DNA from: Blautia sp.
GTDB lineage: Bacteria > Bacillota > Clostridia > Lachnospirales > Lachnospiraceae
DNA length: 64,000 bases
NCBI GenBank assembly: GCA_047014865.1
Contig: JBKXQO010000001.1
Coordinates: 4,089-68,088 of the forward strand
Direction of reading: 5' to 3'
The notes under the pieces were generated by a model. That model did no database searches and was not told the DNA's origin. It saw nothing but the letters and a program-made list of their open reading frames with translations. Made by a program: the position numbers and the translations under genes. Of the stretch, positions 24,465 through 33,168 are shown in pieces (the first letter of the stretch is position 1; each line of letters begins with the position of its first letter).

Positions 24465-24477
24465 TATTCTGTAACAA
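24465..24477 (+). repeat. att core, left (TATTCTGTAACAA)
   Basis: Identical 13-mer at 33156-33168; host-type genes lie outside both copies. Confidence 0.8.
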
Positions 24478-24577
24478 GTTTAACTTACATCGTTTTCTGT
24501 AACATCAGCTATTTTCCTCATATAAAACGCTGCATTCCATATCATTTTTTGCTTATTATCCTATCTGTACATACTTT

Positions 24578-24595
24578 CAGTCCCATCTTAGTACC
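24578..24595 (+). repeat. Putative integrase arm-type site (CAGTCCCATCTTAGTACC)
   Basis: 15/18 match to TAGTACCATTTTAGTACC at 33076-33093. Confidence 0.55.
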
Positions 24596-25448
24596 ACCCC
24601 AAAGCCTCTCTTTCCACAGCACTGTACCACGTCCGTTTAAAGCTCTCCAGCCCTACATGGCGAATGGGCGCCGCTGCTAGGTACTGGTCATAATACTGCT
24701 TATACTGATACCTGTGCACCCTCTGCCTGAGAGTCCTCATCGCTTTCTTATCAAGCTGGCGAACATACTCCGTACTTACTCTCAGGTCTTCCCCCACCTC
24801 TTTCAGTGTCTTCTCCTCCTGATAGCGCATCCGGACAACCGTGGGCAGATTATCCGGCAATTCATCCACTGATCTCCACAGTTCTTCTTTCATTCGCTCC
24901 CTATCCAGGCGTTCAATAGCCTCTTCCTCCAAGTCTTCCTCTGAGGCTATGCTCTCCTCCAAGGTCAGATTCTCAGTACCTGGCAGAGGCTCGCTCAGGC
25001 TCTGTATTTGCCCCATTCTGGCCGTTTCTCTTAGCTTTTCGACCTTTCTCCTACCCACGCATAGAAGCCCACACATTTCCCTATCAGAGGGCTCATAGCC
25101 ATATCTCTTTATGAAATCATCCCTGGTCTTCCTGTACTGCCTTACTTCGTCATTCAGATAAGAAGGCAGCCTTATAGATCTGTCCTGCTCCATATACCGC
25201 CGCATCCTTGTCTTGATCCAGAACGCCGCATAGTTGATAAAAGGTACACCTCTAACGGCGTCATAGCCCCTCACGGCATCACACAGAGCCAGATATCCCT
25301 CCTGCTTTAAATCATCAAGTTCCTCCTGGCCGGAATAAATCATGGCCAGCTTCCCAATAAACCCCTGGTTCTGCTGCCAAAGTAAACGCATATTTTCCGC
25401 TTCGTCTATGCCATCCTGAATCAGGACTACAAGCTGCTCATTCGTCAT
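24588..25448 (-). CDS. Sigma-70 family RNA polymerase sigma factor (element-encoded)
   Basis: Region 2 DDLKQEGYLAL..AV..YD..RGVPFINYAAFWIK; region 3 SLSEP; region 4 KTLKEVGEDLRVSTEYVRQLDKKAMRTLR. Confidence 0.88.
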   Translation of the reverse strand: MTNEQLVVLIQDGIDEAENMRLLWQQNQGFIGKLAMIYSGQEELDDLKQEGYLALCDAVRGYDAVRGVPFINYAAFWIKTRMRRYMEQDRSIRLPSYLNDEVRQYRKTRDDFIKRYGYEPSDREMCGLLCVGRRKVEKLRETARMGQIQSLSEPLPGTENLTLEESIASEEDLEEEAIERLDRERMKEELWRSVDELPDNLPTVVRMRYQEEKTLKEVGEDLRVSTEYVRQLDKKAMRTLRQRVHRYQYKQYYDQYLAAAPIRHVGLESFKRTWYSAVEREALGWY

Positions 25449-25529
25449 AATGCCACCTCTTATCCTATCCCATTTATAAGAAAATCAGGCCCCATACCCC
25501 CCTTCTGGAAGCACAGGGCCCGTTGTCAG

Positions 25530-26393
25530 TTACTCACTGTCTGGCAAAGCCTGATAATAGATTGCTTTCGCTTTATTCTCCAGCACAAACGCATCATAGA
25601 CAATGCGCCCCTCTACCAATGACCCACTAAGGCCTGGTGGATTCTGATGTGTTTTATAGCTCTCCAACTTGGTAGGTGCGACTGTCGCACAAGGATGGAC
25701 AACCATAAAACCAAATTTCTCCGGCAGACGTTTAGCAGACACTTTGAGTACGTCCAGTCCGTCCAGATTCCCAACAAAGCCAACACTCCGTTTACCTTCA
25801 TCTAGTACCGCGCGGACCATATCCTGATATCTCCCTGCGCTATCCTTACTAGTCTTCATCAGAAGCAAAGTCTCCGGTGTTATGACTAAAATCCGTCCAG
25901 TCTCTGGTACATCTGCATTATCCAGAGCCGTGTTCGCTGTAAAAATCTCATCGTAGATATTGGAGGAAGTCAATTCTTTTTCTGCCGGCTTATTCCCCGC
26001 CCCTTCACAGATTTTCCCTAATACATAAGTATCTACCTCTGGGATCACCACTTCTCTCATCTGTCTGCTCAATGCAGTGGCCGCTTCCAGCTGGCCCTCG
26101 GTCTCCTCCGTGTCAAGCGTATCAATCGCAAAGGTAAAAGAACGGTCTTGGGACAGCTCTTTTCGTTCTGTCGTCGCGTTCAGCGCCTCTACCGCTCCAT
26201 AGCGTGACCAATTTCCCTCAGTGGCTCCGGTACGACCATAATCGTTCATTTTTCCGGTACTGATCTTATAGATCTTCACGGAGTGCGCACCAGAAAATGA
26301 AAAATCCTGATTTGTAAGATATTCTTTTTTACTCTCCTGTGTGAACTGTTCATCCACATAAGGGAGATATTTCTCAACTAACTCTATTGCCAT
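25530..26393 (-). CDS. Phage major capsid protein (Firmicute siphophage type)
   Basis: MAIELVEKY..YVDEQF, DRSFTFAID, VVIPEVDTY, LDNADVPETGR, NPPGLSGSLVEGRIVYDAFVL resemble this capsid family from recall; directly downstream of the scaffold gene. Confidence 0.78.
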   Translation of the reverse strand: MAIELVEKYLPYVDEQFTQESKKEYLTNQDFSFSGAHSVKIYKISTGKMNDYGRTGATEGNWSRYGAVEALNATTERKELSQDRSFTFAIDTLDTEETEGQLEAATALSRQMREVVIPEVDTYVLGKICEGAGNKPAEKELTSSNIYDEIFTANTALDNADVPETGRILVITPETLLLMKTSKDSAGRYQDMVRAVLDEGKRSVGFVGNLDGLDVLKVSAKRLPEKFGFMVVHPCATVAPTKLESYKTHQNPPGLSGSLVEGRIVYDAFVLENKAKAIYYQALPDSE

Positions 26394-26396
26394 CTA

Positions 26397-26858
26397 TCAT
26401 CTTCCTTTCAGACCCATCGCTTTCCTGATCTCATCGCTTCCAGCTTCCCCGCCCGTTGCCGATGAAGGTCCTGAGTTGCTGAGACTCCCGTTGAGAAGCC
26501 GGTAGGGTCTAAGATTAGAACCTTTGAAATAGGTGCTGATGAGCTCTATACTCTCTTCCATTTCTTCTTTATTTCCACATTTCACCAAGGGCAGCAGCTC
26601 TTTCGGTATTTTCTCATCTGCCAGCCTTTCCCTGGCATCCAGATGAAGCTCCCGCTCATTTAACGCCTGCTCCCGTTTGTCATGTTCAGAAGTATCCGGC
26701 AGATTTTTGGCCCTTGCGAGCCGCTCCCTGACGATCTTATTCACTTCCTCCTGGGTGAACAGTTTTTCCTCCGGCTGCTGGGTAGCGCCCTGCTGGCCGC
26801 TTGGTTCCTGCTGCTGTTCCTGTGCCATGTTCTGGCCTTCCACACTCTGATGCTCCAT
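26397..26858 (-). CDS. Capsid scaffolding protein (DUF4355-like)
   Basis: Low-complexity Q/E N-terminus followed by KLFTQEEVNKIVRERLAR; coiled-coil; precedes the capsid gene. Confidence 0.78.
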   Translation of the reverse strand: MEHQSVEGQNMAQEQQQEPSGQQGATQQPEEKLFTQEEVNKIVRERLARAKNLPDTSEHDKREQALNERELHLDARERLADEKIPKELLPLVKCGNKEEMEESIELISTYFKGSNLRPYRLLNGSLSNSGPSSATGGEAGSDEIRKAMGLKGR

Positions 26859-26925
26859 GTGTATCTCCTTTCCCCGTTTATCGCCCGGTCGGCTATATAA
26901 ATACAATGAGGATATTCAGACAAAT

Positions 26926-26984
26926 AAAAAAAAGGCGCAGGAATAACTTCTAGACATTTCTGTCTGTAAGTTATTTCCCACGCC
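26926..26984 (-). terminator. Long hairpin + U8 in the leader of the scaffold-capsid-sigma operon
   Basis: Minus strand GGCGUGGGAAAUAACUUACAGACA-GAAA-UGUCUAGAAGUUAUUCCUGCGCC-U8; G:U pairs only on the minus strand. Confidence 0.7.
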
Positions 26985-27059
26985 ATTCTCTCAAAGGCTT
27001 CCAGCGCTGGCAGTATTTAGCACTGGGGTACTTCTCAATATTCTATTTGACTCGAGATA

Positions 27060-27088
27060 ATTATACCAAACATGGGAGGGGTACGCAA
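27060..27088 (-). promoter_or_regulatory. SigA-type promoter TTGCGT-N17-TATAAT (extended TG) for the capsid operon
   Basis: Exact 17-nt spacer, TGnTATAAT. Confidence 0.65.
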
Positions 27089-27104
27089 CCCCGGAATCTT
27101 TTCT

Positions 27105-27314
27105 TTATACGGGTTTCCGAACCCCCTCCCCTTTACTAATTGCTGCTAAAACTCTAGTTTTCCCTAGTAATTCATGCCCTGAATGAGCCGCCATGGCTTT
27201 ATCTATTCTGCTTTTGATTTCAGGTTTTCTCAGGTTCTCCTCACCGACCGAATAGGCCGTCTGAGGGGAATAACCGGCTCTGATGGCAGCCTTATTGCTC
27301 CTTTGCTTCATCAA
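27105..27314 (-). pseudogene. terS: Terminase small subunit remnant
   Basis: AAIRAGYSPQTAYSVGEENLRKPEIKSRID is the TerS HTH motif. Only 69 aa, with no normal N-terminus or C-terminal oligomerisation part. Confidence 0.65.
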
Positions 27315-27427
27315 TAAATGCTTCCATCATCTTTGTAAGTTGTGTTCCCATCGCAACACCTTTTTACAGAAAAAACACCCCGTATTTCTACAGGGTGCCC
27401 CAGTAAATCCTTTTATTATTTGTGTAA

Positions 27428-27610
27428 TTATCTACTCAATTCCCTTGATTTCAACCATACATACGCCCTCTTATATTTGCCCTGCTGATTCTTAGATACC
27501 TTGCAGACCTTCACGGTATCCCCCAGGATTTCCAATACCAGATCCAAGTCCTCTTGTGTCTGGTAAGATACTCTTAGCCTTACGGGTAGTTTCTCAATCT
27601 TATCACTCAT
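27428..27610 (-). CDS. Small hypothetical protein (60 aa)
   Basis: GGAGG RBS; ATGA overlap with upstream ORF. Confidence 0.6.
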   Translation of the reverse strand: MSDKIEKLPVRLRVSYQTQEDLDLVLEILGDTVKVCKVSKNQQGKYKRAYVWLKSRELSR

Positions 27611-27726
27611 CTGATTACCTCCATGTACATTCTATGCACTATATGAAATATCAACTTTAGAGCTCTTCCATCAATTATCTCGTCAATCATTTTTTTAATA
27701 CAATCCCTGTACTCTTCTTTACTCAT
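27607..27726 (-). CDS. Small hypothetical protein (39 aa, MSKEEYRDCIKKMIDEII...)
   Basis: Below ORF-track cutoff; AAGGAAG RBS; stop overlaps the next ATG. Confidence 0.55.
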   Translation of the reverse strand: MSKEEYRDCIKKMIDEIIDGRALKLIFHIVHRMYMEVIR

Positions 27727-27747
27727 CTTACTCTTCCTTTCCGCTAA

Positions 27748-27776
27748 TTTACTTTTAATTAAAACTATGGTACTAT
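27748..27776 (+). promoter_or_regulatory. Promoter TTTACT-N17-TACTAT (extended TG) for a counter-oriented sRNA
   Basis: 17-nt spacer; directly precedes a structured non-coding unit that ends in a terminator. Confidence 0.55.
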
Positions 27777-27781
27777 GTACC

Positions 27782-27856
27782 TGTCTCCTTTTTAAAGCCG
27801 CCCAGCTTTTCGGAGATAGACAGCCCTGTAGGTATTTATCTATAGGGCCTTTTTTT
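27782..27856 (+). ncRNA. Putative ~75-nt regulatory sRNA with CGCCCA loop
   Basis: Promoter, AAAGC-CGCCCA-GCUUU hairpin, terminator GCCCUGUAGGU-AUUU-AUCUAUAGGGC-C-U7 with G:U pairs favouring the + strand. Confidence 0.6.
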
Positions 27857-27858
27857 GG

Positions 27859-28029
27859 TTACTTGTACCTTAACATTTCCTCGATAGAGTCCAGCATAAA
27901 GACTTTCAGCATCTCAATGCCTTGGTTCCGATCAAAGCCATAGAGCCGCAATATTTCAAGCCTATGGTTCTGCTGCGTAATCCAGTTTTTTAACAGCTTG
28001 TCCTTTTCTTCCTGTGATATCTGGTACAT
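27859..28029 (-). CDS. Small hypothetical protein (56 aa, MYQISQEEKDKLL...)
   Basis: GGAGG RBS; TAATG coupling to upstream ORF. Confidence 0.6.
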   Translation of the reverse strand: MYQISQEEKDKLLKNWITQQNHRLEILRLYGFDRNQGIEMLKVFMLDSIEEMLRYK

Positions 28030-28172
28030 TATTTTCTCCTCCCTTTTTTCTTTGACTTTATGAACTGAAACATTTTAGCCTGAATTCTGGCTTTCTCCAT
28101 TGGGAGCTCTATGCAACCATCCTCTTTTATGACACGAAACCCGTTTTCACTGCCTGTCTTACTTTTGCTCAT
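28029..28172 (-). CDS. Small basic hypothetical protein (47 aa, MSKSKTGSENG...)
   Basis: GGAGGTG RBS; coupled to the downstream ORF. Confidence 0.55.
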   Translation of the reverse strand: MSKSKTGSENGFRVIKEDGCIELPMEKARIQAKMFQFIKSKKKGRRK

Positions 28173-28178
28173 TTTGGA

Positions 28179-28448
28179 TCACCTCCTCAGTTTATTTATG
28201 CTTTTCTGTGATACATTAAAAAATATTTTTACATAGTGTTCATCACAGTAAGAACAATCTCCAAAATATCCGCATCTTGCCATAGCCTGTTTAAATTCTT
28301 CATGCGTTACGTCTGGAATATCTCTTTGTACAAGTCGCAGCAAAAACACAGAATTACAATCATTCCGGATATTTTTTGATGGTGAGAATTTCTTGTCAAT
28401 CCAGTTACATATCATAAGCTGTCTATCAACCACTTTACTAAAGGTCAT
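28179..28448 (-). CDS. Hypothetical protein (89 aa) downstream of the replicase
   Basis: AGGAG RBS; ORF track. Confidence 0.6.
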   Translation of the reverse strand: MTFSKVVDRQLMICNWIDKKFSPSKNIRNDCNSVFLLRLVQRDIPDVTHEEFKQAMARCGYFGDCSYCDEHYVKIFFNVSQKSINKLRR

Positions 28449-28476
28449 TGTCTCACTCCTATACTGGTAAATAATA

Positions 28477-28525
28477 TTTCTTTCATTTCTTTTGTTTCGG
28501 TGGAAATGAAAGAAACAAAAGAAAC
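28477..28525. repeat. Iteron-like inverted/direct repeats, candidate replication origin
   Basis: TTTCTTTCATTTCTTTTGTTTC-GGTG-GAAATGAAAGAAACAAAAGAAAC, immediately after the replicase stop. Confidence 0.5.
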
Positions 28526-28545
28526 GTTTGTTATGTGTTTAAGTC

Positions 28546-30405
28546 TTATAAAAATGGGTTTTCGGATTCAAAAACATGAATACAGGCTGCCGTGCCTTTG
28601 CTGATTTCTGAATGGTGAATAGCGTCGTATTCCTCCAGGTCCAGCAGTAACGCTTTAATCTGGTTCCCAACTTTCTGAGAAGTGCCATATATCCGGCATC
28701 CCTTGAAGTATTGGCTGCTCTCTATAATATCCTTTACCCGGCCTTTCCACTTACCCTTGCCCTGGTCTACAAGGTGCCTTATAGTATTCACTATAGGGTC
28801 ACGGTCATAAGCCTGACGCTTTCTTGTCTCTTCTACGGCTGCGGCATCACCTAAATTCTCCCACTTAACACCATTGCGTTTCAGCTTATAACTACTGTCT
28901 ATGAGCGTCCTTCCTGTTATTGCAAGGGTGGCTTCTTTGTCCTCTCGCTTCTCTTTGTAGAGAACCCATACAAAATCACTTACACCGATGATCGCAGTAG
29001 ATCCTAAAAGATTACTGAACGGGTCTGTAGGGTCAACAAATTTCCTATCATGGTATATGGGCATGATGCACACGCCAAAACGGTCTGCAATCTGTTTGAG
29101 CTTTGTCAGAATTTCATAATCTGCTTCATAGTCCGTTTGGTTGAGCTGTTTCCCTCTTTTTACTTTCTGGAACACATCAATAACGACCATTTTTACATCC
29201 GGGTTCCCTTCCAGGAAACTACATAAATCTTCTTCAAATCCTTCACCCATTAAATTAAAATCGTGAGCAAAGCATAAATTATGCGGCGGTTCTCTCCCGT
29301 CCAATATCGCTCTCAATCTATCCTGTGTTAGAGATGGAGTATTCTCAAGATCCACATATAGGACACCACATTTCTTCGTAGTAAACCCCAGAAACTTATC
29401 TCCACACGCCAGATCGACACTTAATTGTAGCGCAAGCCAGCTCTTACCCAATTTCGACTTAGCGGACAGCCCCCCTAATCCTTTTGTTAAAATTCCTTCT
29501 ACAAGGTGTATAATAGGTGGCAGATCGGCTGTCATTAAAGCATCCGCCCCAGTATAATTGATTGTCTTTTTTTCTGTCTTCTGCCGGAACTTACCATTAT
29601 CGTACACCGCCGTATATGACTTTTCCGTTTTCCAGCCCCGTTTCAACGCAGGAAACACTGTCTTTTCAAGTTCCTGGTCAGTGAGCGGTGGAACGCACTT
29701 CTTGTCATTTTCTGCCCGGATTGCTGCCTTGATTGCTTCATCATCAAGCCCCTTTGCTTTTAAGCTACCAATCAGCTTAATCATAGCGTTTGTCCGTTCC
29801 CCTTCGGAGATTGTCTCCGGCATCTGAAAAAGTTCCTGCCTTTCTGGAACTGATCCCATGAGAAAATTTGCCACTCTGCCATCTACCTGGGCAATCTCAC
29901 AATCTCCCGGCCCCTGCTCCCATTCATACTGACGCCCATTTGGGTGTATGCTTGGCGGAGCCACTATGTACCCGCCCTCTCCACGGATATCAACCCCCTC
30001 ATAAAGCCCGACACGGTTCCGATTCACGGCACTATCCCTGTATAAAAGATGATAGCCGCCCCGGCCTGTGACACTTGTCCATGTGTCAGGAAGCTCCCCA
30101 TTCTCCCTCTGCCAGTCCCTTAAAACATCGTAGCCATCAATCCCCTTGTCCTTATCTACATCCAGATCAATAACCACCAGGCCGTTAGATTTGCCCCCTG
30201 TAGCGATTCCAATATTGTACTGGGGATTAATCCCCCACCAGTCTTCTATCTGCTGTAAATCAGTGGTAGCGGCCTTACAGCCATTTTCTGTTGCTGGGCG
30301 CTTGTCTTGCGGCTTCAGGGGAAACACAGATAAGCCCCAATGGGCGTATCTCAACGCCCAATCTCTCAGTGTCTCCAGCTTACTCACCTGCCTTAACGCC
30401 GCCAT
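28546..30405 (-). CDS. Bifunctional primase-polymerase (Prim-Pol) + PriCT + RecA-like AAA helicase
   Basis: VFPL..K.P, NIGIATG, VIDLD, TGRGGYHL, DIRGEGGYIVAPPSIH; ERTN..PPL..EL; AKSKLGKS Walker A, VVIDVFQ. Confidence 0.88.
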   Translation of the reverse strand: MAALRQVSKLETLRDWALRYAHWGLSVFPLKPQDKRPATENGCKAATTDLQQIEDWWGINPQYNIGIATGGKSNGLVVIDLDVDKDKGIDGYDVLRDWQRENGELPDTWTSVTGRGGYHLLYRDSAVNRNRVGLYEGVDIRGEGGYIVAPPSIHPNGRQYEWEQGPGDCEIAQVDGRVANFLMGSVPERQELFQMPETISEGERTNAMIKLIGSLKAKGLDDEAIKAAIRAENDKKCVPPLTDQELEKTVFPALKRGWKTEKSYTAVYDNGKFRQKTEKKTINYTGADALMTADLPPIIHLVEGILTKGLGGLSAKSKLGKSWLALQLSVDLACGDKFLGFTTKKCGVLYVDLENTPSLTQDRLRAILDGREPPHNLCFAHDFNLMGEGFEEDLCSFLEGNPDVKMVVIDVFQKVKRGKQLNQTDYEADYEILTKLKQIADRFGVCIMPIYHDRKFVDPTDPFSNLLGSTAIIGVSDFVWVLYKEKREDKEATLAITGRTLIDSSYKLKRNGVKWENLGDAAAVEETRKRQAYDRDPIVNTIRHLVDQGKGKWKGRVKDIIESSQYFKGCRIYGTSQKVGNQIKALLLDLEEYDAIHHSEISKGTAACIHVFESENPFL

Positions 30406-30571
30406 AGCAGCATTTCTCCTCGAAATAGGCCCTATTCACCTTCCCAGCTATGGTTATGTACCCCTGTGCCTTTAACCGCCCATTCAGCTCCCGGATCACC
30501 TCATAGGCCTTCCCCTCACTCACTCCAAGGGCCTCTTGCACTTCCTTTACCGTTACAAATTGCTTATTCAT
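30380..30571 (-). CDS. xis: Excisionase-like HTH protein
   Basis: FVTVKEVQEALGVSEGKAYEVIRELN..L...GYITIAGKV, typical of Firmicute ICE/prophage Xis. Confidence 0.72.
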   Translation of the reverse strand: MNKQFVTVKEVQEALGVSEGKAYEVIRELNGRLKAQGYITIAGKVNRAYFEEKCCYGGVKAGE

Positions 30572-30588
30572 TGGCTCCTCCTTTCCCA

Positions 30589-30801
30589 TTAGGCAAAGAT
30601 AATCTTGTGACTTGGTTCTTCTATCCCCTTGTATTTCACAACACAGCAGAATCCATAATCATAATAGACCGCTGGTACTTCTGCGCTTGCAGATCTGCTA
30701 ATCTTAATTTCTGTCACATAATCTACTCCTACGGTGTGCGCTTTCTCAATTAACGCCGCAACCTCATAAGACTTCGTTAAATATACCTTGTATCCTTCCA
30801 T
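30589..30801 (-). CDS. Hypothetical protein (MEGYKVYLTKS..., 70 aa)
   Basis: AGGAGG RBS at 30809-30814; between cro and xis. Confidence 0.6.
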   Translation of the reverse strand: MEGYKVYLTKSYEVAALIEKAHTVGVDYVTEIKISRSASAEVPAVYYDYGFCCVVKYKGIEEPSHKIIFA

Positions 30802-30821
30802 TGTTCTTCCTCCTTTTCTTC

Positions 30822-30840
30822 TCATCCATGCCGCCCAGCA
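30822..30840 (+). repeat. 19-bp repeat copy 1 (TCATCCATGCCGCCCAGCA)
   Basis: Identical to 31973-31991. Confidence 0.85.
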
Positions 30841-30846
30841 TAGAGA

Positions 30847-31056
30847 TTATTCTTCTGTTTCGATGATCTCAGTTACATCAACGCCGAGAGCTTTCGCGAT
30901 CTTTCCGACAGTTAATGGCTTGCAAGTTTTTTTAGTAAGTACATTAGCTAAAGATGTTTTTGGCATGGCTGCTTTTTTTGCTAATCCTTCTGTAGAAAGA
31001 CAGTTCCTTGCCATAGATAGCTCAATCTTTTCTTTGCTTATCCTCAATATGCTCAC
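30847..31056 (-). CDS. Cro-like XRE HTH protein
   Basis: Short HTH (LAKKAAMPKTSLANV...KIAKALGVDVTEII), divergent from the repressor. Confidence 0.8.
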   Translation of the reverse strand: MSILRISKEKIELSMARNCLSTEGLAKKAAMPKTSLANVLTKKTCKPLTVGKIAKALGVDVTEIIETEE

Positions 31057-31066
31057 CTCTTTTCAA

Positions 31067-31141
31067 ACAGTATTTTTACTGTTTTTCACAATATATCACA
31101 GCATTATTATTGTGTCAATATAAAAACAGTTTTTTTATTGT
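31067..31141. promoter_or_regulatory. Genetic switch: three 16-bp operators and leftward promoter TTGACA-N17-TATATT
   Basis: ACAGTATTTTTACTGT (31067-82), ACAGCATTATTATTGT (31098-113), ACAGTTTTTTTATTGT (31126-141); -35 at 31113-118, -10 at 31090-95 on the minus strand. Confidence 0.7.
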
Positions 31142-31190
31142 GTTTCTGTACATAATATGATAAAGTAATTGCAATGGAGGTATACAGGAT

Positions 31191-31640
31191 ATGACATTTG
31201 GTGAAAGAGTAAAAGAATTACGCTTAAAAAAAGGACTTACTCAACGTGAACTTGGTGAAAGAATGGGGGGAATAACCCAACAAACTATTGCACAATATGA
31301 AAAAATAGTTGAACAACCCAAATTAGTTACCATTCGCAAAATAGCAAATGCTCTTGATGTAAAATTGTATGAACTGGTGATAGACTGGTCACAATTTTCC
31401 CCTGAAGAATTAAAAGAAGATTTTACCAATACTGACGGAAATTTCTACGGAAAAGAAGCATCCCCTGAAGAACAGCAAAAATTCATGGATCGTTTGTTTA
31501 ATGGCAAAAACGAGGCTTCCAACAAAAGAAAAGCCTTAGATAAAAAAATAGATCAGTTTAATGATGATGGAATACAGAAGATTTCTGATTATGCAGATGA
31601 TATAATGAAAATCCCCGAATACCGCAAAGACACCGAATAA
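31191..31640 (+). CDS. XRE-family (CI/Stl-like) repressor
   Basis: MTFGERVKELRLKKGLTQRELGERMGGITQQTIAQYE HTH. Confidence 0.88.
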   Translation: MTFGERVKELRLKKGLTQRELGERMGGITQQTIAQYEKIVEQPKLVTIRKIANALDVKLYELVIDWSQFSPEELKEDFTNTDGNFYGKEASPEEQQKFMDRLFNGKNEASNKRKALDKKIDQFNDDGIQKISDYADDIMKIPEYRKDTE

Positions 31641-31663
31641 GGTCGTGAATCACGACCTTATTC
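31635..31663. repeat. Perfect 14-bp inverted repeat at the repressor stop
   Basis: GAATAAGGTCGTGA-A-TCACGACCTTATTC. Confidence 0.7.
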
Positions 31664-31752
31664 CGCACCTTGACAATATAATATACTTACCCAGGGAACC
31701 GATGGGGCGACTACACCAGTCACCGGAATACAAATGAAGGGAGCTGGTGCCA

Positions 31753-31839
31753 ATGATTACAGTGTCGGAATTATTCCAGTTTGTAACCATGCTTTGTGCA
31801 GTGATAACTCTTGTTATTTACATATCACGCAAAAAGTAG
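31753..31839 (+). CDS. Type I toxin, holin-like single-TM peptide (MITVSELFQFVTMLCAVITLVIYISRKK)
   Basis: 28 aa, GAAGGGAG RBS, hydrophobic helix with basic C-terminus; convergent antisense promoter. Confidence 0.75.
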   Translation: MITVSELFQFVTMLCAVITLVIYISRKK

Positions 31840-31925
31840 CGCCCTCGGTCTGGTAAACTAAGGCGCTACTTTAGCAAATTACTTTACCGGCGACTAGGTG
31901 TGTTCTAGTCATCGGTTCTCTTGTT
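31830..31925 (-). ncRNA. Putative antisense antitoxin RNA
   Basis: Consensus TTGACA-N17-TATAAT on the minus strand (31960-31932); hairpin AAAGUAGCGCC...GGCGCUACUUUUU overlapping the toxin stop. Confidence 0.65.
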
Positions 31926-31960
31926 AAGTATATTATATGTCAATAAAAAACTATTGTCAA

Positions 31961-32006
31961 ATACCTTTCTCTTCATCCATGCCGCCCAGCAAGAAAGGAA
32001 GGGTAT
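31961..32006 (+). promoter_or_regulatory. RBS-sequestering hairpin in the integrase leader; its loop holds repeat copy 2 (31973-31991)
   Basis: AUACCUUUCU-c-UUC pairs with GAA-a-GGAAGGGUAU just before ATG 32008. Confidence 0.55.
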
Positions 32007-32007
32007 T

Positions 32008-33078
32008 ATGCCAGTATTTAAAGACGAACAACGGGGAACTTACTTTGTAAAATGCTACTACACAGACCACACCGGAACCCGGAAACAGAAAAAGAAACGG
32101 GGCTTTAAACTCCAGAGGGACGCCAAAGAATGGGAAAGGAATTTTCTGGAGACTCAACAGGCTGACCTTAATATATCCTTTGAATCCTTTGTAAAAATCT
32201 ATAATGAGGACATGAAGCACCGCCTCAGGGAGCATACCTTTATTCAGAAGCAGTATGTCATAAACAAGAAGCTGCTGCCTTTCTTTGGAAAACTCCCAGT
32301 GTCGCAGATCACCCCGGCTCATGTGCGGAAATGGCAAAATGCATTGATCGCCTACCGGGATGAAAAAGACAAGCCCTATTCTGAAACCTATCTACGGACA
32401 ATTAACAACCAACTTTCCGCCATCATGAATTACGCTGTCCGGTACTACGATTTAAAAGATAACCCATGCCGCAAAGCCGGGAGCATAGGAAAAGGCCATG
32501 CGGATGAAATGCAGTTCTGGACTACGGACGAATTTAAGCGGTTCCTTGAAAAGATCTCTGATAAACCAGCCTCAAGAGCCGGATTTCTCATTCTGTATTA
32601 TACGGGCTTACGCATAGGAGAACTATTAGCCCTAGAATATGCCGATATAGATTTTAAAAGCTGCACAATCAACATAAATAAATCCTACCAGCATATCAAC
32701 GGAAAGGACGTTGTAACGCCGCCTAAAACGCCCAAGAGCGTCCGTATTGTGTCTATCCCGGAATTTCTACGGGACGAGATTAAAAGCTATACAGAACGGC
32801 TCTACGGCCTCCATAAGCATGACCGGATTTTCCCATACACAAAACACTTTTTCGAACGTGAAATGATACGAGGAACCAAGGATGGGGAAATAAAGCGGAT
32901 CCGGCTCCACGACATTCGTCACAGCCATGCCAGCCTGTTGATTGAGATGGAATTCTCTGCCCTATCTGTTGCCGACCGCCTGGGGCATGAGAAAGTAGAA
33001 ACCACTCTCAATACCTATTCCCATCTGTTTCCCCACAAGCGGGATGAAGTGGCCGAAAAGCTCCAAAAATTAAAATAG
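32008..33078 (+). CDS. int: Tyrosine recombinase / site-specific integrase
   Basis: Arm-binding N-terminus (KQKKKRGFKLQRDAKEWE); YTGLRIGELLAL, PKT, HDIRHSHAS, LGH, TYSH catalytic motifs. Confidence 0.95.
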   Translation: MPVFKDEQRGTYFVKCYYTDHTGTRKQKKKRGFKLQRDAKEWERNFLETQQADLNISFESFVKIYNEDMKHRLREHTFIQKQYVINKKLLPFFGKLPVSQITPAHVRKWQNALIAYRDEKDKPYSETYLRTINNQLSAIMNYAVRYYDLKDNPCRKAGSIGKGHADEMQFWTTDEFKRFLEKISDKPASRAGFLILYYTGLRIGELLALEYADIDFKSCTININKSYQHINGKDVVTPPKTPKSVRIVSIPEFLRDEIKSYTERLYGLHKHDRIFPYTKHFFEREMIRGTKDGEIKRIRLHDIRHSHASLLIEMEFSALSVADRLGHEKVETTLNTYSHLFPHKRDEVAEKLQKLK

Positions 33079-33093
33079 TACCATTTTAGTACC
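33076..33093 (+). repeat. Putative integrase arm-type site (TAGTACCATTTTAGTACC)
   Basis: Internal TAGTACC tandem; near match at 24578-24595. Confidence 0.55.
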
Positions 33094-33155
33094 GCAAGCA
33101 TAAAGAAAAAGCCGATTTTCCTTGTAAATTCAAGGTTTCTCGGCTCTTTTCTATT

Positions 33156-33168
33156 TATTCTGTAACAA
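33156..33168 (+). repeat. att core, right (TATTCTGTAACAA)
   Basis: Identical to 24465-24477; ~80 bp downstream of int. Confidence 0.8.

Follow-up and report, generated by a model that had tools for sequence, protein, structure and literature searches.

A conserved, co-varying pair of sites in a Blautia satellite element may let an early transcript free the integrase ribosome-binding site

Genetic organisation of the element

The window, a stretch of 64,000 nucleotides from Blautia sp., carries an element that spans 24465-33168 between two 13-nt att cores, and the related element L032 shows a circular junction in which 33160 is joined to sequence like that at 24489. By its gene content (att-flanked, with int, a divergent regulator pair, an xis-like gene, a primase-helicase and terS; the size criterion is about 9-15 kb) the element is classed as a PICI-like satellite. 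It additionally encodes its own scaffold, major head protein and sigma-70-like factor, and no match to tail, portal or terL genes was found among the 16 ORFs scanned. Named relatives are mainly Lachnospiraceae. The features of the element are:

24465-24477 (+): att core, left end; 13-nt direct repeat
24588-30405 (-): rest of the early operon, primase-helicase to sigma-70-like factor, from domain and PHROG searches
24588-25448 (-): sigma-70-like factor
25530-26393 (-): major head protein
26397-26906 (-): scaffold
27105-27314 (-): terS-like ORF, 69 aa, apparently truncated
27783-27857 (+): sRNA-like unit, a hairpin followed by a terminator (fold z -4.0; terminator prediction)
28546-30405 (-): Prim-Pol/AAA_25 primase-helicase
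30380-30574 (-): probable excisionase, 64 aa; phrog_989 (unknown function), E 2e-24; weak HTH_17 match below cut-off
30589-30801 (-): 70-aa ORF directly after the proposed trigger; no family match; absent from L032
30815-30840 (-): copy 1 of the repeat, the proposed trigger (exact part 30822-30840), 6 nt past the cro stop
30847-31056 (-): Cro-like HTH gene, first in the early operon and divergent from the repressor; PHROG transcriptional repressor families, E about 1e-4
31090-31118 (-): early promoter candidate, 11/12 with TG, by consensus match only
31191-31640 (+): repressor (XRE HTH), 149 aa; Pfam HTH_3, phrog_8
31676-31960 (no strand assigned): type I toxin-antitoxin-like insert between repressor and int, with a 29-aa hydrophobic ORF, a promoter and fold-back arms
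31961-32006 (+): predicted int leader hairpin; the 3′ arm contains the Shine-Dalgarno sequence (SD) at 31994-32001, and the apical loop is CGCCCA, 31983-31988
31973-31991 (+): copy 2 of the repeat (19 nt); upper end of the 5′ arm, internal loop and apical stem-loop
32008-33078 (+): tyrosine integrase, 356 aa; Pfam PF00589, PF14659 and PF14657 above cut-off
33156-33168 (+): att core, right end; 13-nt direct repeat

The 64-aa phrog_989 protein is probably the excisionase, as judged from its fold and position. In the toxin-antitoxin-like insert, the hydrophobic ORF (31755-31844, + strand) has no Pfam match, the promoter (31960-31932, - strand) fits the consensus at 12/12, and the fold-back arms lie at 31676-31717 and 31897-31938; Rfam matches of the insert to BsrG and ohsC were both below gathering score. 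The -35 box of its antitoxin adjoins the int hairpin, and a minus-strand promoter of at least 10/12 lies directly 5′ of the int leader in 9 of 26 elements. A perfect 14-bp inverted repeat covers the repressor stop codon (31635-31663) and could be a processing site, a terminator or an operator.

A repeat shared by the integrase leader and the early operon

The 19-nt sequence TCATCCATGCCGCCCAGCA occurs exactly at 30822-30840 and 31973-31991, just where the earlier note had placed it, and nowhere else across the 3.06-Mb genome; no helper-phage copy of the 19-mer is present in this genome. A 14-nt match to the repeat lies elsewhere in the host genome, at C11 position 89565. When the 8.7-kb element was simulated with a Markov-3 model, repeats of at least 19 nt appeared in 2 of 300 runs. 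Genome-wide there are 187 exact direct repeats of at least 19 nt with a spacing of 60-5000 nt, so the repeat by itself is unremarkable, and it is position and conservation that carry the case.

Copy 2 covers the apical loop and the 5′ (anti-SD) arm of a hairpin that is predicted to hide the int ribosome-binding site (RBS). The hairpin folds at -13 to -15.4 kcal/mol (z about -2.0) with the SD paired, and the predicted probability that the SD is unpaired in the leader alone is 0.11. The earlier note had described such an RBS hairpin with the repeat as its loop; the pairing of the SD is borne out by folding, but the 19 nt do not form one open loop, being made up of 2 stem nucleotides, a 5-nt internal-loop strand, a 3-bp apical stem and the 6-nt apical loop. 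Copy 1 lies, as had also been claimed, on the opposite strand, within the minus-strand early operon served by the promoter candidate at 31118-31090. It follows the cro stop codon (30847-30849) by 6 nt and stands 20 nt ahead of the next start codon at 30801, and the 3′ end of the trigger adjoins the SD of that gene (30815-30809). Alone, the trigger RNA is predicted to fold as a small hairpin with a GC-rich loop complementary to the apical loop of the leader. Compared with L032 the trigger is a 90% conserved island, although the downstream gene differs.

In eight elements the int start lies 55-100 nt past the repressor stop with no plus-strand consensus promoter between them, and the leader is therefore, most simply, part of the repressor mRNA in these elements. 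In the window, the toxin-antitoxin-like insert and a bidirectional terminator-like hairpin (31832-31873) precede the leader, and the sole plus-strand promoter candidate before it is a 9/12 match at 31906-31934. The fold-back arms of the insert suggest a transcript that reaches at least 31938, and the 9/12 candidate would also start a transcript upstream of the hairpin.

Conservation of the site pair

For an integrase-first survey, 333 sequences yielded 303 with an int start, 200 distinct leaders and 154 leaders with at least 2300 nt upstream. The best same-strand match scores of these 154 were bimodal, with 27 leaders at 16-26 and 127 at 13 or less, and the inverted-strand control peaked at 13. 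We excluded L143 (score 16), whose match is AT-rich and 4.3 kb away, which leaves 26 positives including the window. The resulting 26 of 154 distinct integrase leaders (18 of 125 in a first pass) describes an enriched set and is not a frequency, part of the loci having been gathered with integrases from positives and part with the motif pattern. The positives form 21 sequence clusters. Over the last 20 nt of the matched block, identity was 0.96 within an element and 0.52 between elements, and the cognate trigger was the best partner for 22 of the 26 leaders. Both copies are thus kept in relatives and co-vary, which the earlier note had proposed as a point to check. On a tree of 149 integrases, 24 of them positives, the distribution needs 7 changes, at least 5 of which are forced by well-supported branches.

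The remaining 128 leaders had no partner, and integrases 80-91% identical to that of the window are among them; on this comparison the matched pair is therefore one option among several for such integrases. In L025 the trigger is kept after cro, about 950 nt upstream of int, though the int leader is of another type; this orphan is likely to reflect a recent leader swap, because the sister element L018, from Lacrimispora sinapis JR3, has both copies. Nine loci (L001-L005, L008, L010, L013 and L014), with integrases 80-91% identical, have a different RBS-locking hairpin with the loop GCACCC or close variants, and no long partner was found for these leaders.

Beyond this set, a GC-rich core was found repeatedly across elements. 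A looser motif pattern matched in 9 of 400 other genomes, twice in integrase leaders (both with a partner) and seven times without a partner. A degenerate DNA pattern matched no viral contig; the same pattern failed to fit even L032. The phage records phi11, phi3626, phi4J1, BtCS33, phiFN37, vB_SpsX-DS3 and MT839393 gave no partner (best score 11), and the record MT838829 carries no upstream DNA. The int leader of phi11 (L333) has a hairpin with a CCCGC loop that resembles the core, with no partner copy within 6 kb.

The pair was also approached from the cro side, using a profile of 24 cro proteins against 400 class-level and 400 family-level genomes. Matches beyond the genome of origin numbered 14 and 27, of which 11 and 23 were taken as loci, the skipped ones being 3 short contigs and 4 loci already included. 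Thirty-three of the 34 loci were scored: 7 had a partner scoring 18-27, and the others scored 11 or less, with inverted controls reaching 17 once and 14 once. All 7 partners sit in the leader of an integrase-like ORF. Two of the 7 repeat earlier elements and 5 are new; each of the five new ones matches PF00589, and four of these five integrases are just 21-30% identical to the window Int. Partners beside such distant integrases indicate that the module moves together with the cro-repressor switch and joins different integrases. In total, about thirty related elements carry both the lock and its key.

The survey also bears on the suggestion, raised as an alternative in the earlier note, that the copies are recombination ends, or else duplication relics, around the cro-repressor-toxin-antitoxin cassette. 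The copies are direct repeats on DNA and the cassette content between them varies, as that suggestion would have it, yet the att cores lie elsewhere, in the different 13-nt repeat at 24465 and 33156. The sole deletion derivative seen (L020) breaks inside cro and repressor rather than at the repeats, the motif is in none of the 128 partner-less leaders, no clean loop-out product was seen, and a relic would not hold 0.96 identity through 21 sequence versions. We consider such an origin very improbable. The repeat was likewise rejected as an att site or circle junction, since the distinct 13-nt repeat marks the ends.

Substitution pattern and the choice between RNA and DNA

Pairing between RNAs from opposite strands tolerates a T in the leader against a C in the partner, and a G in the leader against an A in the partner, as G-U pairs, and does not tolerate the reverse changes. 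Among isolated substitutions, counted with one element per cluster, 19 transitions were G-U-compatible and 7 incompatible, with 7 transversions in addition (binomial p 0.014; Fisher 8e-4; both p-values overstate the effect because kin among the elements are not independent). The corresponding counts outside the block were 42 and 32, and nearly all of the G-U signal comes from T/C changes. Five held-out elements gave 3 compatible changes and 2 incompatible. The bias is modest, and its T/C signal could also stem from the composition of the arm; it favours RNA pairing in a supportive, not a decisive, way.

A reading that dispenses with pairing would see the copies as sites on DNA (or on same-sense RNA) that are bound by a protein of the element, such as Cro, the repressor or the excisionase, and that co-evolve with this protein. 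The GC-rich core shared across elements would suit a binding site, as would the orphan copy that persists after cro in L025, and the S. aureus int leader, described in passages of PMC2869324 as a sigma-H promoter region, has a similar CCCGC loop. A protein site leaves unexplained, however, why near-identity extends over 20-30 nt and includes the arm that is not shared between elements (0.52). The sites are moreover not palindromic, the pair outlives the replacement of cro between the window and L032, and the mismatches lean to G-U. We give this reading a small chance.

Geometry of the match and predicted release of the Shine-Dalgarno sequence

Twenty-four of the 26 partners begin 2-10 nt past the stop of a cro-like gene (63-73 aa), and 21 of these 24 genes have a PHROG regulator match. 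The exceptions are L022, with one extra ORF between, and L020, a deletion remnant in which ATT replaces the int start. On the leader side, the apical loop falls inside the block in all 26 elements. Of the SD nucleotides predicted to be paired, 107 of 145 have their partner inside the block, and no SD nucleotide (0 of 178) lies in the block itself, which ends 17-32 nt ahead of the int start codon in a search that permitted reach to -13. Identity beside the block drops to 0.16 just 3′ and is 0.65 further 5′. A match that takes in the loop and the anti-SD arm and ends before the SD has the shape that would be expected of an antisense RNA stripping the arm off the SD.

Folding predictions point the same way. 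Co-folding of the 26 elements raised the probability that the SD is unpaired from 0.20 to 0.69 with the cognate trigger, a rise of more than 0.2 in 24 of 26, and forced dimers with non-cognate triggers gave 0.45. The SDs of partnered leaders are also predicted to be more buried than those of 106 partner-less leaders (unpaired probability 0.20 vs 0.45), and the leader fold has z below -1 in 24 of 26 elements and below -2 in 17. Leaders were folded as single sequences, with stem covariation within the leader left out of the count; for 23 leaders aligned with MAFFT, RNAalifold yielded no consensus pairs, since their stems do not fall in register. The predicted duplex is 20-30 bp long with a mean stability of -54 kcal/mol.

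On balance we judge it probable that pairing between the early transcript and the int leader frees the int RBS. The activation that the earlier note had proposed from one locus is in part supported by comparison between elements, through conservation, co-variation, kept positions and an activator-like geometry. The same pairing could nevertheless serve the opposite purpose, the int leader acting as an antisense silencer of leaky early transcripts that run past cro and keeping the following gene, in many cases the probable excisionase, from being translated or from being reached by transcription, with activation of int as a side effect or absent. P4 CI RNA and P1 c4 RNA act as such silencers on their targets. 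Silencing fits all of the pairing evidence equally well, and the next gene is often placed to suit it: its start codon lies within 22 nt of the block in 18 of 26 elements, phrog_989 accounts for 11 of the 14 downstream genes that were scanned, and, among the 18 elements with an SD in the trigger tail, 10 have half or more of it within the predicted duplex. In 7 elements, however, the next gene is more than 80 nt away and the leader side is unchanged there, so that release of the int SD is the one effect common to all; the match also ends before it reaches the int SD and covers precisely the arm by which this SD is hidden. We regard silencing as the main function as unlikely, but still as a serious rival.

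A further reading takes the 20-30-bp duplex as mainly a signal for RNase III-type decay or processing of both transcripts, pairing then lowering Int during lytic-side expression; lambda sib retroregulation is a functional parallel. The length and stability of the duplex would suit a double-strand nuclease, but decay requires no pre-buried SD, nor that the match keep to the anti-SD arm, and excision calls for more Int rather than less. We think a primary role in decay improbable. The site pair in these elements is real, conserved and co-varying, and, with activation, silencing and decay taken jointly, we hold the RNA-RNA pairing to which its geometry points to be very likely.

A third copy in an sRNA-like unit

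A third, 10-nt match (27797-27806) lies in the loop of the sRNA-like hairpin, behind a TG-extended promoter candidate (27748-27776) that was identified by eye at 8/12, below the scan threshold. Within search spans of 2.9-9 kb, a hairpin with the leader's loop before a plus-strand terminator was found in 3 of 26 elements, namely the window, L022 and L229, and the units of the latter two also stand behind TG-extended -10 boxes. Units of this kind are also present in L032 and L023, where the loop does not match. The third copy is same-sense to the int leader, with a predicted ddG of -20 kcal/mol with the early transcript and -1.9 with the leader, and in the window the unit is predicted to pair with the trigger and the neighbouring SD. 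An optional decoy for the early transcript, or a repressor of it, is the reading that suits the unit best. The earlier note had built the third copy into a three-RNA circuit; that idea is the weaker part of its proposal, with the third copy present in 3 of 26 elements and two relatives whose units have no matching loop.

As a unit of TG-extended -10 box, hairpin and terminator, the sRNA-like arrangement recurs in the window, L032, L023, L033, L022 and L229. It lies antisense to a small gene's locked RBS farther along the early operon, and its loop fits the trigger in some elements only.

Relation to known systems

DsrA acting on rpoS and RNAIII acting on hla are anti-antisense activators. Further examples of such translational activators are RprA on ricI and other mRNAs (in passages of PMC9299015) and StxS on rpoS and IsrK on orf45 (in passages of PMC12197685). 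As in those systems, a second RNA would here pair with the RBS-hiding arm and free the RBS: the RBS is predicted to be sequestered by an upstream arm, the second RNA is complementary to that arm and not to the RBS, and the potential to pair is retained despite sequence change. The differences are that the activator is an internal piece of a polycistronic mRNA of the same element rather than a dedicated sRNA, that the complementarity is near-perfect and element-specific, and that the target is an integrase. What would be new is thus an mRNA segment as the activator in an otherwise known type of activation.

Synthetic riboregulators, both toehold switches and crRNA/taRNA pairs, share with the present case a hairpin-locked RBS, a sequence-matched trigger and partly orthogonal pairs. 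A strict toehold switch has a single-stranded 5′ toehold and its RBS in the loop, whereas here there is no such toehold, the 3′ arm of the stem holds the RBS, and the apical loop, through which entry would occur, is where the match ends. The label of toehold switch given in the earlier note therefore does not hold in the strict sense, and the arrangement is closer to crRNA/taRNA.

The P4 CI and P1/P7 c4 RNAs are likewise trans-pairing RNAs in a satellite or phage early region, but they repress, and they pair within one operon. The c4 RNA is listed in a table of PMC2864571, and no Rfam c4 match was found here. Neither copy had an Rfam match at E up to 5, and at gathering score the 8 related loci matched just tRNA, rRNA and T-box. 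An int-alpA motif is reportedly to be expected in the supplement of one paper, and the leader could already stand there as a predicted motif. The Lacto-int RNA motif is, in the part of PMC2864571 that treats it, a predicted structure before Firmicutes phage integrases that ends at the SD, a likeness to the present leader. It differs in being AU-rich, from Lactobacillales, with a published consensus that by eye looks different and no partner described in that part of the paper. The table there gives it no Rfam number, which places it outside the Rfam search.

Integrase control in lambda (pL/pI), P2, 186, P4 (Int/Vis) and KplE1 (IntS/TorI) is exerted at promoter or protein level, according to passages of PMC2951348, and S. 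aureus int is described as under sigma-H promoter control in passages of PMC2869324. In P2 and 186 int is on the lysogenic transcript, with the RDF on the lytic one (passages of PMC2951348), a split over two transcripts like that proposed here. None of the controls in these passages of PMC2951348 and PMC2869324 is described as involving pairing between two transcripts, and searches of the open literature (subscription journals being outside their scope) found no description of such pairing between an int leader and an early transcript.

Proposed mechanism and significance

In the mechanism we favour, the int leader would fold so that its pyrimidine arm hides the SD, as predicted and conserved. 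Going by the gene layout, the leader would be carried on a repressor-side transcript made in the integrated state, and int mRNA would then be there but silent. Once repression has been lifted, or shortly after entry, the divergent early promoter would fire, and the sequence after cro may form its small hairpin, whose GC-rich loop is complementary to the apical loop of the leader. Geometry and co-variation suggest that loop-loop contact would extend to a 20-30-bp duplex down the anti-SD arm, leaving the SD single-stranded. Int would then be made over the same period as the excisionase, its translation being confined to the time when both transcripts are present. A separate sRNA that carries the loop of the leader could, in a minority of elements, soak up the trigger.

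There is no good account of how elements whose int lies on the repressor transcript increase Int when they excise, and pairing would be a concrete, protein-free answer. A broader proposal, to which we give about an even chance, is that an AND gate between two mRNAs, of a kind so far undescribed, operates in Clostridial satellites and prophage-like elements: the lytic-side transcript activates int translation, a lineage-specific lock and key fits unrelated integrases, the duplex tunes excisionase translation, and a decoy sRNA sets the threshold in some elements. If true, nature would offer an example of activation of one mRNA by another that is portable across integrase subfamilies, and gut Clostridia would supply about 30 natural lock-and-key riboregulator pairs.
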